A stretch of 8,767 nt of DNA, from IMG/VR virus record IMGVR_UViG_2534682078_000033. One strand, given 5' to 3'. Origin of the DNA: a virus. Taxonomy: Duplodnaviria > Heunggongvirae > Uroviricota > Caudoviricetes. The position numbers were made by a program. Below are positions 1 through 3,000 of the stretch, piece after piece. Within the stretch, counting starts at the first letter, position 1. Every line of letters begins with the position of its first letter.

Positions 1-3000
1 TTGCTGAGTTTTGGATCGCTTGATGATGTTTCCCTGGCTGATGCCAGAAAACGCCGTAGCGAGTACAGGGCGTTAATTCGTGCCGGAACTGACCCGCAGG
101 ACCACGAGAGGCAAAAAAGAGAGACAGAGGCCCGAAGACAAGGGAACACGTTCGAAAATGTGGCAACAGCATGGTACCAGGTGAAAATCAGCCAGAATCT
201 GGCCCCCAATACGATTAAAGACATCTGGCGATCGCTGGAAAAATATGTATTCCCGTTCATCGGCAACACGCCAATAGACACCCTGACCGCTCGCAGGTTT
301 GTTGAGGTGCTTACCCCCATCAAGGAACGTGGCAACCTGGAAACGCTCAAGCGAGTTTTACAGCGTGTAAATGAGGTAATGGATTACGCCGCCAATAGTG
401 GGATGATTGATGCCAATCCGGCTATGAATGTGCGTAAGGCGTTCCCCTCCCCTGTAAAAAAACATATGCCAACAATCCGCCCCGAACAGCTGCCGGAGCT
501 TATGCAGGCTTTATCAGTATCGGCAACAGAACGGCAGACCAGATTACTGATTGAATGGCAGTTACTGACCGTAACCCGTCCCGTTGAAGCATCGTCGGCA
601 CGCTGGGAAGAAATCGACATGGAGGCGCAACGCTGGACCATACCCGCCGGACGCATGAAGATGCGCCGCGACCACGTTATCCCGCTTTGTGACCAGGCTA
701 TGGCAGTGCTGGAGGCTATGAAACCAATCAGCCACCACCGCGATTATGTTTTCCCAAGTCTGAAAGACCCACGGCAGCCGATGAACAGCCAGACAGCAAA
801 CGCAGCATTACGACGCATGGGGTTCGCTGGCGTGCTGGTGTCTCATGGATTACGCGCCATATTCAGCACAGCAGCGAACGAGGAAGGATTCGAGCCGGAC
901 GTAATCGAGGCGGCACTTGCCCACGTCGACACCAACGAAGTCAGACGGGCATACAACCGGAGCAACTACATAGAAAAACGCGTGGTGCTTATGCGCTGGT
1001 GGGGCGAATTTGTCGAGGCTGCGGCGACGGGCGTAACCCTCGCCAGTGGTAAAAGGGGTATCCGAGCCGTTTAGCTGTACAGAAAACCAGTAAAAACTAC
1101 GAAAACCATTTAAAACCGTCGTATAATTGCATCACATTTAACGACGAGGCCTTGAAAAATGAAACCGTTAAGATGCAAACAAATTTCAGATGCAATTGCG
1201 ACGGGCTGCAACTGGCCCTGATGGTTCAGCATGAATTTTGGTCAACCTACGATCCGGAGGACAGAACGACGGCCCCATCAAAAAAACAGGTAGTAGATTT
1301 CCTGGTATCCCGTGGAGCTTCCAGAAATCTGGCTGTAAGTATTGATAAGGTTGTACGTCCGGCATCCATGAAGACCGGAGGCAGGCCCAAAAAATGGCGG
1401 TAACAATCCTGAAAGCGGCAGAAATGCCGCTTTTTTTATAAATCCCTTTCAAATCATCAATATAAAAAACGGTGTATACCGTTTAAAAACGGTGAGTACT
1501 GTTTTTCCCTGCATCCGATGATTTACCGTATTTCTCACCGGAATACACCGGATTAATGAGGTAAATCACGATGGAAGCAATCAAAAAAGTCATCTTTCGC
1601 CAGGAAGTAAAAAAACTTATCCATATTAAGGCAGACAGCACGCTGCAAAGCATGATCAACGCCGGAGAATTCCCGCAGGGTTTTCGTGTCGGTTTGCGCC
1701 GTCGCGGATGGTATGAGGAAGACGTAATCGCATGGATGAAAGAACGCGAACAAGAAGCGCGCGGAACGACCGCTTAACATATATAGGGCAAATGATGAAC
1801 ATAAAAAAAGCGGCCCCGAAATGGAGCCACCTTTCTGAACAATTAACCCGCTGCGCCGTATGTGTCAACAATCATAAGCCTGGGCATGATAACCGCGATC
1901 AGGCTGGTGGGCAATTATCTTGCTTGTTGGGGCCGTATTGTGCTGCCATTTTCATCCGTTCAGAACGTGAATATTTTTTTAGAAACTCATCAAGGACAAA
2001 AGCGCATGGTGCGAATCTTTCTGATTCATGCTCGAGCGCCATATTTTCGTGCTCTCTGTTCGTTTTTTGCGATGGTGTATTGGTTGATTCTTTATTGGTC
2101 ATTGTGTGTACCTGTAAAGCAATGCGCCGTAGTACCTCACGCCACGGCGCTGATGTTTTTTATCCTTTGGGTTCAATACCGCGTTGCTGTAATTCTTTTC
2201 GGAGTACTCGCTTGATCCAGGTGGCTAAAGAAGTGTCACCGTCTGCTTTCGCTGCCTCTTCAAGTTGTGCTCTGAATTCTTCTGGTAGCCGCATTTGGTA
2301 TGGAGGCGATCGCTTTTCCAATGGTGTTGACATGGTAATTACCCTTAATTACTATAGTTACATGGTAATTACCATTGTACTTACCGTTATACAAAAAACA
2401 ACGCCCCGCAGTGGTGGCTCACATACGGGGCGTCTAACCAAACCATTAATTGAGGTAACGATTATGGCTATAAAAGAGCATAGCTTACTCTTTATACACA
2501 CACAAACGCCCCGGAAACGGAATAATCCGTTTCATAGCTCCGTTTTGTGTACTCATCCTGGCGGGCGATTCTTACGGGACTTTAGCCGCCGTGGGCAGCT
2601 TGCTAAAAATGCCTCCAACGCGAATAGTCCAGGTTTCATTTCTATCGGTATTAGTTGGATATTCAGAGGATTAGCCAGTTCGGCTTCAAGGCGAGCACAG
2701 GTTTCTAACTGCCTTTGCCGAATGATTTCATCTTCTTGCGTCTGCGTGTCTTGTATTGGTGATAGTGTGTTGTTGGTCATAGTACTGCCCTGTAAAGCAA
2801 TGCGCCGTAGTACCTCACACCACGGCGCTGATAGTGATTATTCTGATTCTTTGGCCTTGCGGCGCTGGAGTTCTTCACGTGCGACAGTGACGAGCTGCCC
2901 GATCTCCTCGGCGGCTTTGATTCCGAGTTTTTCCACCTGCGCCAGTGCATTGAGCGAAGAAATCAGGAGGTTTTCTCCGCTTCCTTCTGCCTGGCGGCGG

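Follow-up and report, generated by a model that had tools for sequence, protein, structure and literature searches.

The DNA analyzed here (the window: the whole 8,767 nucleotides of IMG/VR record IMGVR_UViG_2534682078_000033, classified in the Caudoviricetes) is a small phage satellite of Escherichia coli O111, a capsid-forming island of the type of P4 and the phage-inducible chromosomal islands (PICIs). It contains two copies of a 44-bp hairpin element, the subject of this work, each located between the gene for a small regulator and a small open reading frame (ORF). Genomes of E. coli O111 match the window at 100% (e.g. NC_013364.1, beside tRNA-Pro). The genes follow in the order integrase, AlpA-like helix-turn-helix (HTH) protein, four leftward ORFs, Icd/Kil-like protein, DUF4222, RepA-type helicase, small terminase subunit and HK97-type capsid protein. 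This layout, leading from vis/alpA through an immunity zone and kil to the replication genes, is shared with Gram-negative PICIs and P4. The synteny of int, alpA, variable zone, icd/kil-like gene, DUF4222 and primase/helicase is that of the Gram-negative PICI/P4-like regulatory ('Bro' or eta) zone, and this order is also present in islands L002-L008 and in P4. Within the zone, a regulatory module composed of small ORF, element, putative ribbon-helix-helix (RHH) gene, divergent TTGACA promoter, leader hairpin and ribosome-binding site (RBS) occurs twice in tandem (1899-2466 and 2553-3342); six loci, the window included, carry such a tandem pair. The element and its neighbors are:

2111..2154, minus strand: element copy 1; stem-loop 2124-2150, stem 2124-2132/2142-2150; 68.6 bits with the element covariance model R1
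2124-2128 and 2146-2150: clamp GCGCC/GGCGC of copy 1, enclosing the loop CGUGAGGUA (minus strand)
3' part of copy 1, minus sense: CAUUGCUUUACAGG, carrying the weak RBS of the downstream ORF
2789..2832, minus strand: element copy 2; stem-loop 2802-2828, stem 2802-2810/2820-2828; 11-bp stem with loop UGAGG in minus sense; 70 bits
2160..2333, minus strand: 57-aa Arc-like, putative ribbon-helix-helix gene of module 1 (PHROG 228, E=4.9e-7; hypothetical only in RefSeq)
2838..3143, minus strand: 101-aa YlcI/YnfO family gene of module 2, candidate repressor (NCBIfam, E=5e-20)
1899..2102, minus strand: 67-aa small ORF 1 (MTNKEST..., motif EHESERFAPCAF; phrog_21027), weak coding signal
2553..2780, minus strand: 75-aa small ORF 2 (MTNNTLS...), unannotated by PGAP

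The initial annotation of this DNA had pointed out the two copies, and the coordinates and sequences it gave for them are accurate; the repeat is far from a chance event. They are identical at 43 of 44 positions, the sole difference (g2141/a2819) lying in the loop, and similarity continues beyond the hairpin over 75 nt at 83% (2092-2166 versus 2770-2844), including the minus-strand ATGACCAAY AA; a repeat finder ranks these 75 nt as the top direct repeat of the window. The stem has nine pairs, one of them (a2131/c2143) an A.C mismatch on the plus strand and a G.U pair on the minus strand, and a run of six T follows copy 1 on the plus strand at 2156-2161, beginning 5 nt past the stem. The flanking genes are likewise arranged as described: 2333-2160 and 3143-2838 lie upstream, 2102-1899 and 2780-2553 downstream, all on the minus strand and in one frame. 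Folding of the minus strand yields a 9-bp hairpin for copy 1 and an 11-bp hairpin for copy 2, with minimum free energies of -18.5 and -24.3 kcal/mol for 71-nt segments; relative to shuffled sequence these correspond to z values of -1.5 and -3.0, which is modest as pure thermodynamics. The hairpins by themselves reach -14.9 and -17.8 kcal/mol (copies 1 and 2) in minus sense and -12.7 and -12.4 kcal/mol in plus sense.

Each copy is embedded in a 57-nt spacer in which the stop codon of the regulator precedes the stem by 9 nt and the start of the small ORF follows it by 21 nt. This geometry is common to both copies and 68 of 70 unique contexts. On the minus-strand mRNA the order is regulator, stop, 9 nt, hairpin, a single-stranded CAUUGCU(U/A)U(A/G)CAGG with the weak RBS (ACAGG), and small ORF. 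The position is therefore intercistronic in both copies and in most related islands, the L209 type being the exception.

That the regulators belong to the RHH class, as had been claimed, is reasonable for the 57-aa protein, which is Arc-like according to PHROG 228 and matches Pfam Arc below the cut-off (E=0.008), but only indirect for the 101-aa protein. For the latter, YlcI/YnfO is the only family match; some of its homologues are called Arc-like or CopG by UniRef, and homologues show weak matches to CB_ParB_C and DUF7557. Its AlphaFold model, an extended segment followed by two helices and a long C-terminal helix, has a topology compatible with RHH. A Foldseek search with this model gave no significant match and thus no confirmation of an RHH fold, and a PDB profile search on the RHH identity of the YlcI-type protein came back empty. 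The two regulators of the window share 29-31% identity; a relationship between small ORF 1 and small ORF 2 is not detectable (E=0.37). Substitutions in regulator genes, counted by codon position (2/2/20, 27/21/66 and 13/3/26), fall mostly on third and least often on second positions of the minus strand, which indicates that these minus-strand genes are real. The coding signal of the small ORFs is much weaker. A defense or toxin role of the small ORFs was considered and rejected, as PADLOC, Pfam and PDB offered no credible assignment and the only match, of small ORF 1 to a Cas8g model, was marginal (E=6e-4).

The element is very common in one host. Using an 86-nt query, it was found at 2784 places in 1611 of 5426 complete E. 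coli genomes, with up to seven places per genome, and a phage collection searched with the same query gave no match. All annotated cases inspected show the order int, alpA, (small ORF), element, YlcI/YnfO or small hypothetical gene, Icd-like gene, DUF4222 and primase/helicase. Among 73 YlcI-type loci, a sample of IMG/VR contigs picked by protein alone, 69 have the element 3' of the gene at the same offset from the stop codon. When loci were selected by the 57-aa Arc-like protein, the element was present in only about 25 of 78, the others having a canonical terminator or unrelated DNA right after the stop codon. It is absent 3' of the ylcI homologues of 53 other species (Xenorhabdus, Photorhabdus, Yersinia, Pectobacterium, Edwardsiella and others), where different sequences follow the gene, so that no deep alignment of the element is possible. 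These 53 loci usually have another hairpin at this place, in about 15 cases a canonical terminator as judged by eye and in 13 according to a scripted criterion of at least five T in the tail. The element is confined to islands of the Escherichia type. A degenerate copy exists in a decayed island with transposase remnants (L006), about 1.9 kb from the gene for Esr41 (584-657; Rfam RF02676, 103 bits), a small RNA of enterohemorrhagic E. coli (EHEC).

Conservation within the element is sharply partitioned. For the sample anchored on the protein, ylcI has a nucleotide diversity of 0.077, 0.044 and 0.264 at codon positions 1, 2 and 3. Against this background, diversity is 0.000 in both the 5' arm (GCGCC) and the 3' arm (GGCGC) of the outer clamp, 0.25 and 0.50 in the inner stem, 0.25 in the loop and 0.18 in the 3' flank. 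An invariant clamp next to values of 0.25-0.50 inside it and 0.264 at third positions of ylcI argues that selection is on the GC clamp and its close flanks, that is on the base of the hairpin, and neither on the full 44 nt nor on a message in the loop, which occurs as GUGAGGUA, GUAAGGUA, UUGAGGAA, GUGAGUAA, GCGGUGAA and GCGACGAA. The initial annotation had taken the preservation of the sequence between diverging genes as a sign of function; this applies to the 5-bp clamp and the close flanks but not to the interior, which varies across islands at approximately the rate of silent sites. Since interior and loop vary in this way, the 43/44 identity of the two copies in the window must stem from recent common origin or gene conversion.

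The substitutions also distinguish the two strands. Among 19 distinct variants, 91.2% of the cells of the 9-bp stem are paired in minus sense versus 77.8% in plus sense, and the minus-strand hairpin is the more stable one in 15 of 19. All strand differences in pairing are due to wobble: nearly every variant has G.U at position 8, and where positions 5, 6, 7 and 9 of the stem have changed, the result is G.U or U.G on the minus strand and A.C or C.A on the plus strand. One change in the clamp, C to U in the Arc-like sample, likewise retains a wobble pair on the minus strand only. The inner pair 14-22 is seen as U-A, C-G and C.A. This tally comprises about a dozen events scored by hand. A structure on the minus strand is therefore favored, not proven by covariation. 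Of the RNA-level function originally suggested, the general idea is retained as the best reading, on the minus strand, in view of the pairing bias, the stability in 15 of 19 variants and the divergent neighbors; its antisense, Shine-Dalgarno (SD) mimic and terminator forms are not.

As to termination, the stable, GC-rich stem-loop expected of an intrinsic terminator is present, whereas the U-tract and a positive score are lacking. A discriminant of the d'Aubenton-Carafa type (d; our own implementation of the formula) gives values between -27 and -48 for both copies on both strands, compared to +31 and +33 for two canonical terminators of the window. The first of these ends the leftward operon of module 1, which has a canonical terminator only past small ORF 1:

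1803..1836, minus strand: canonical intrinsic terminator GGCUCC..GGGGCC + U7 closing the module-1 operon past small ORF 1; d=+31

The T6 run behind copy 1 had been mentioned as a possible means of terminating rightward read-through from alpA. The plus-strand scores of -35 and -48 speak against this, as does the restriction of the T6 tail to the Arc-like context. A lenient consensus terminator scan reported copy 2, on the minus strand only; despite this one match, the terminator reading was rejected because of the negative discriminant, and the attenuator that had been envisaged is not supported.

The proposed SD-related roles fare no better. The loop was said to be complementary, on the minus-strand RNA, to the GAGGUA SD region of the rightward leaders, which is a strand error: the minus-strand loop, (C/U)GUGAGGUA, has the same sense as this motif and only the plus transcript is complementary to it, over 6 nt. 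Matches to the loop motif in the window are not above chance (20 found versus 14.3 expected), and the loop is not conserved across variants (the L208 and L209 types among them), GAGG giving way to GAGU or GGUG. Three further candidates were discarded. A CsrA site consisting of a GGA loop and ACAGGA at the RBS fits some variants, yet both window copies lack the GGA (judged by eye). For a leader peptide running from the UUG of CAUUGC to a UGA overlapping the AUG, the frame is a simple consequence of the constant spacing, and the SD lies at an unfavorable distance. A plus-strand start codon in GCAATG begins an ORF only where a stop codon lies upstream (L209) and has neither SD nor promoter.

With somewhat less than even confidence, we favor the view that the element is the intercistronic stem-loop of a leftward repressor-operon mRNA which protects the upstream cistron and uncouples the expression of the two cistrons. 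Both would be present on one leftward transcript that is not terminated at the hairpin; regulator and small ORF are probably co-transcribed because a promoter scan of the window found no promoter-like site between them and the terminator of module 1 lies beyond the small ORF. Endonucleolytic cleavage would take place directly behind the stem, in an A/U stretch that is single-stranded. RNase E prefers the sequence RN↓WUU, and GC↓AUU 3' of the stem fits this preference. The processing site named in the initial annotation is still a live option. The hairpin would then guard the 3' end of the regulator cistron from 3' exonucleases, and more regulator than downstream protein would result from one transcript. 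Non-terminating hairpins with a GC clamp at such a position are the classic means of this kind of protection. The L314-type regulator, which lacks the element, is followed by a canonical terminator hairpin instead. As the same regulators without the element often possess canonical terminators (13-15 of the 53 distant loci, and L314), a hairpin 3' of the gene appears to be the rule; the non-terminating version accompanies a second cistron.

Several observations weigh against this proposal. No stem pair has changed on both sides, so that the compensatory double changes looked for at the 9-bp stem are absent, and the percentage of paired cells does not exceed a shuffle control (56/500); diversity is low, the sequences are related, and covariation leaves the structure unproven. 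The common variant with a CUCC arm breaks pair 7, type B retains only 6 of 9 pairs, and the copy-1 hairpin exceeds shuffled sequence only modestly in stability (z=-1.5). About two thirds of the Arc-like regulator genes do without the element, and the widespread L209-type variant is a hairpin without a small ORF behind it, so that 'intercistronic' is not universal. Finally, an invariant clamp around a variable interior with a fixed length of 17 nt would also be expected of an inverted DNA repeat bound by a protein.

The first alternative, which we regard as unlikely, denies the element any dedicated function: it would be a recombination joint homogenized among co-resident satellites, and the hairpin a relic of a former terminator. 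Reassortment around the element is in fact extensive. Flanking gene types combine freely, the regulator ending in QRGIEPKG with four types of small ORF and the one ending in RRKAKESE with five, and chimeric variants place crossovers inside the element. Both copies of the window fall into one variant class despite the low identity of their regulators. The occurrence of up to seven copies in one E. coli genome, the near-silent rate of change in the interior and the restriction to Escherichia-type islands, with absence at ylcI in 53 other species, are also in line with a mere joint. Homogenization, however, would keep clamp and interior alike, whereas the ten clamp bases without any diversity enclose a highly polymorphic stretch, which implies site-specific purifying selection; nor does it account for the bias of stem substitutions toward wobble pairs on the minus strand. 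The element most likely doubles as a joint at which regulator and small-ORF types are reassorted. Within the stem-loop model favored above, homologous recombination would use the shared segment of about 45-75 nt for this purpose, and the two window copies would be nearly identical because of recombination at the element.

A second alternative concerns the plus strand and requires a look at the long frame that runs across the whole zone:

1732..3540, plus strand: 602-codon open frame, likely start ATG 1792, 15 nt past the alpA stop codon; eta-like
1571..1777, plus strand: AlpA-like HTH gene upstream of the long ORF
3340-3540, plus strand: Icd/Kil-like gene (NF033153, E=2e-19)
1-1074: integrase

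Reading antisense to the four leftward genes, this frame crosses the two elements as well as the two promoter regions, and its terminal part is the Icd-like protein (3340-3540). Plus and minus frames share their third codon positions, and the 57-nt spacer, equal to 19 codons, holds the register. The plus frame stays open in 0.5% of synonymous reshuffles of the four genes (P ~0.005), and shuffling of the five intergenic parts gives probabilities of 0.12, 0.47, 0.014, 0.49 and 0.011 for an open frame (jointly ~4e-6). The frame is preserved across Enterobacterales: related islands nearly all have it open, typically over 200-650 codons (e.g. L003 2742-3656, L005 2199-3269; L009-L061), and in the 53 other species the frame antisense to ylcI has a median length of 259 codons versus 25 and 45 in the other two frames. 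Its usual end point is the Icd C-terminus or a position shortly before icd, and its first ATG lies 9-19 nt past the alpA stop codon in 34 of 96 islands. P4 has a 217-codon frame over PLE, seqA, CI, seqC and kil. The plus translation over the module is rich in Cys and Ser and not conserved between module types. Selection seems to act on the openness of the frame rather than on a protein. The element would thus fall between genes on one strand and, on the opposite strand, form part of a frame that is translated yet probably carries no meaning. In P4, the eta ORF is coupled to an alpA homologue and its translation prevents termination (PMC10111431). By analogy, the long ORF looks like the counterpart of eta, maintained as an open frame in order that alpA-coupled translation may bring transcription across the immunity zone.

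On this basis, the plus-strand hairpin might pause or terminate untranslated int/alpA transcripts until it is melted by alpA-coupled ribosomes upon induction, or the plus-strand loop CCUCAC might pair with the GAGGUA SD sequences of alpA, icd or ORF2464. The almost universal openness of the frame, the eta precedent with its 217 codons in P4, the UGAUG-U6 that follows copy 1 on the plus strand and the complementarity of the loop to 6 nt of three rightward RBSs would agree with such a role. We nevertheless consider it rather unlikely: the plus-strand hairpin has A.C mismatches where the minus strand has G.U and is the weaker one in 15 of 19 variants, its terminator scores are -35 and -48, the U run, which begins 5 nt away from the stem, is limited to the Arc-like context, the loop varies with loss of CCUC in some types, and the 6-nt anti-SD complementarity is not above chance.

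That the element functions as DNA, with GCGCC-N17-GGCGC bound by a dimeric protein (AlpA, a protein of the Int/Xis type or the small ORF product, from satellite, helper or host) or serving site-specific cassette exchange, appears quite unlikely to us. Its invariant 5-bp half-sites are 22 bp apart from center to center, about two helical turns, with a spacer that is variable in sequence and strictly constant in length, and it marks the boundary of exchangeable cassettes in a zone which for PICIs has been called dynamic and domain-swapping (PMC10111431). DNA binding, however, does not predict that the spacer is largely self-complementary and that substitutions keep wobble pairs on the minus strand. 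Furthermore, one and the same element accompanies regulators with different operator-like repeats (2330-2388 and 3160-3240) and is therefore not their operator, and gene calling and Pfam/NCBIfam profile scans found no recombinase in the window besides the island integrase.

A switch working on both strands is, in our estimation, very unlikely. The element would stabilize the repressor cistron in leftward mRNA and, in rightward mRNA, where it would be part of an eta-like ORF whose sole purpose is its translation, block untranslated int/alpA read-through until alpA-coupled ribosomes melt the hairpin upon induction, the hypervariable interior setting the behavior specific to each island as in C4/CI types. 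The overlapping-gene design would be an unusual one.

The initial annotation had compared the element to the RNA-based immunity of P4, and this antisense form finds no support. An Rfam scan revealed no match to C4, isrK or c4-a1b1, neither in the whole window (E≤1) nor in the 161 nt from 2040 to 2200 (E≤10), while the positive controls scored 74.9, 60.8 and 44.1 bits in P4 and 62-79 bits in five related islands. An Rfam identity of the element was dismissed, as window and element (the latter with lax filters) gave only chance matches to Atu_C8, GlsR14 and Atu_Ti4. No complementary partner beyond shuffled controls was found with RNAduplex within 2.5 kb on each side and on both strands in seven islands. 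Model R1 recovers the element alone (64-70 bits); it yields no match in P4 at E≤10 and thus misses seqA and seqC. With all of the P4 genome taken into account, the L071-type variant GGCGUGAGGAACUCCGGCGCAUUGC aligns best with seqC, which precedes kil (score 32; 1/300 shuffles), and one element variant aligned locally at seqA; the window's own variants do not align significantly with seqC (47/300 shuffles), so that the similarity of the L071 type is at most a weak lead. The strand favored here is opposite to icd, from which the element is separated by 500-1200 nt and a gene, and in islands with C4 the b2 specificity loops match their own isrK loops and not the element. We therefore judge it highly improbable that the element is an immunity-type target like seqA/seqC of P4 or a1b1 of P1, its loop before the RBS being bound by an antisense RNA of C4/CI type from elsewhere, perhaps another satellite, even though P4 seqA and seqC display GUGAGAAC, the hypervariable interior in a fixed scaffold recalls immunity specificity regions and C4/isrK RNAs occur beside the element in five related islands; some variants, moreover, lack a GUGAG loop.

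Downstream of the RHH-hairpin module, these five islands (L083, L128, L086, L161 and L120) encode one C4 antisense RNA or two, along with targets of the isrK/a1b1 kind. C4 and target loops covary pairwise between islands (UAGUCCUAA/UUAGGAC, AAGGCUAA/UUAGCCU, UGUGGUAA/UUACCAC). As judged from this arrangement, protein-type and RNA-type immunity devices seem to coexist there.

The remaining part of the island contains further features that deserve mention. Each module has its own rightward promoter:

2327..2355, plus strand: module-1 sigma-70-like promoter TTGACA-17-TACTAT, overlapped by ACATGGTAATTACC repeats
3205..3233, plus strand: module-2 promoter TTGACA-17-TAAAGT, driving leader and icd-like gene

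Three copies of ACATGGTAATTACC surround the start of the Arc-like gene over the module-1 promoter (2330-2388) and are likely operators; the motifs GTAAGAC, GTCTTAC, TGTAAGC and GTTACTTAC precede the YlcI gene over the second promoter (3160-3240). The repeats differ between the modules, which fits regulator-specific operators. Both rightward leaders (2401-2445 and 3270-3315, plus strand) contain a common hairpin CCCCG(N17)CGGGG followed by C(G/U)UCUAACCA (fold z ~-2.5), and CUAACC in these leaders is reminiscent of the conserved 3' region found in C4 RNAs of related islands (..CCUAACCCUG..), although no Rfam threshold is reached. The ORF from 2464 (MAIKEHSLLFIHTQT...) opens like the Icd-like protein (compare ...HLVHTQTAFVWRF in L005) and diverges further on, which suggests an insertion of module 2 into the 5' end of an icd gene, with repeat D14 (2387-2408/2492-2513) as a possible mark of the joint. 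A strong fold 3' of small ORF 2 (2480-2560, minus strand; -25.7 kcal/mol, z=-4.0) is not a canonical terminator and may represent the end of the module-2 leftward transcript.

Upstream of alpA by about 70 bp lie 20-bp tandem repeats, AAAAACGGTGTATACCGTTT and AAAAACGGTGAGTACTGTTT (1465-1504), each partly palindromic, which may form a site controlling the alpA promoter. Nine consecutive G (3957-3965), where the ORFs 3537-3995 and 3968-4201 meet, could be a slippage-prone tract or a sequencing artefact; RefSeq has a frameshifted hypothetical gene at this place (L001 7977-8422). Directly 3' of the RepA helicase gene (6127-6340), iteron-like AAAAAGTGGGGAG(T/C)AAAA is present three times at a spacing of 83-85 bp together with more copies of GTGGGGA, and this region is probably the replication origin of the island. 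Direct and inverted repeats of AAAGTTACA just 5' of and within the small terminase gene (7146-7171 and 7348-7429), where they encode a KKVT(K/E)KVT stretch, may constitute a packaging (pac/cos) recognition region.

On a practical level, the hairpin is a handy sequence tag for a module present in about 30% of E. coli genomes and marks the point at which alleles of regulator and small ORF are shuffled. If it indeed sets the ratio of regulator to small protein, it would belong to the circuit that controls lysogeny and induction in very common satellites, among which are those of EHEC O157 and O111. While a protective stem-loop alone is an ordinary device, repressor cassettes lying antisense within a long ORF whose openness persists across large evolutionary distances are more unusual. 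According to Fillol-Salom et al. (2018; PMC6092414), no master repressor is known for Gram-negative PICIs. With its divergent orientation and the operator-like repeats over the icd/replication promoter, the RHH-type gene is an obvious candidate.

Taken together, the element most likely belongs to an ordinary kind of mRNA stem-loop, not described before, that doubles as a mosaic joint and is not an antisense regulator in the style of P4. The closest known counterparts are the repetitive extragenic palindromic (REP) hairpins between malE and malF, which, as reportedly found by Newbury and colleagues in 1987, act as intercistronic or 3' protective stem-loops and bring about differential expression within the operon. 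Like these, the element is an imperfect, GC-rich hairpin a few nt past a stop codon between co-directional cistrons, occurs in many copies per genome, lacks a U-tract and has its G.U pairs on the mRNA strand only. Unlike them, it is confined to one zone of phage satellites instead of being dispersed in the chromosome; as judged by eye, its sequence shows no relationship to the REP consensus, and stabilization of mRNA is only proposed here. The Rho-independent terminators after ylcI and Arc-like homologues elsewhere resemble the element in position and in their stable GC-rich stem but differ in the U-tract, which is missing here (d<0), and in what follows, here an RBS and an ORF.

The P4 immunity region, a nested eta/kil ORF with PLE, seqA, CI RNA and seqC (Rfam C4 RF01695, isrK RF01394, c4-a1b1 RF03163), occupies the same slot between alpA/vis, Icd/Kil and replication genes. 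It shares with the window the long ORF open across the zone and a GUGAG hairpin shortly before an RBS, and one variant of the element resembles seqC. In contrast to P4, the window contains no C4-type RNA and is apparently regulated by divergently transcribed proteins of the RHH type, and the element lies opposite to the icd strand, fails all three covariance models, has no partner and does not conserve its loop. In lambdoid phages and other mosaic temperate phages, conserved boundary sequences separate exchangeable modules. The element is like these boundaries in being a short conserved segment with non-homologous alleles on either side in many combinations and with crossovers inside. What sets it apart from them is the invariant clamp around an interior free to vary, a pattern pointing to a role of its own in addition to that of supplying homology.

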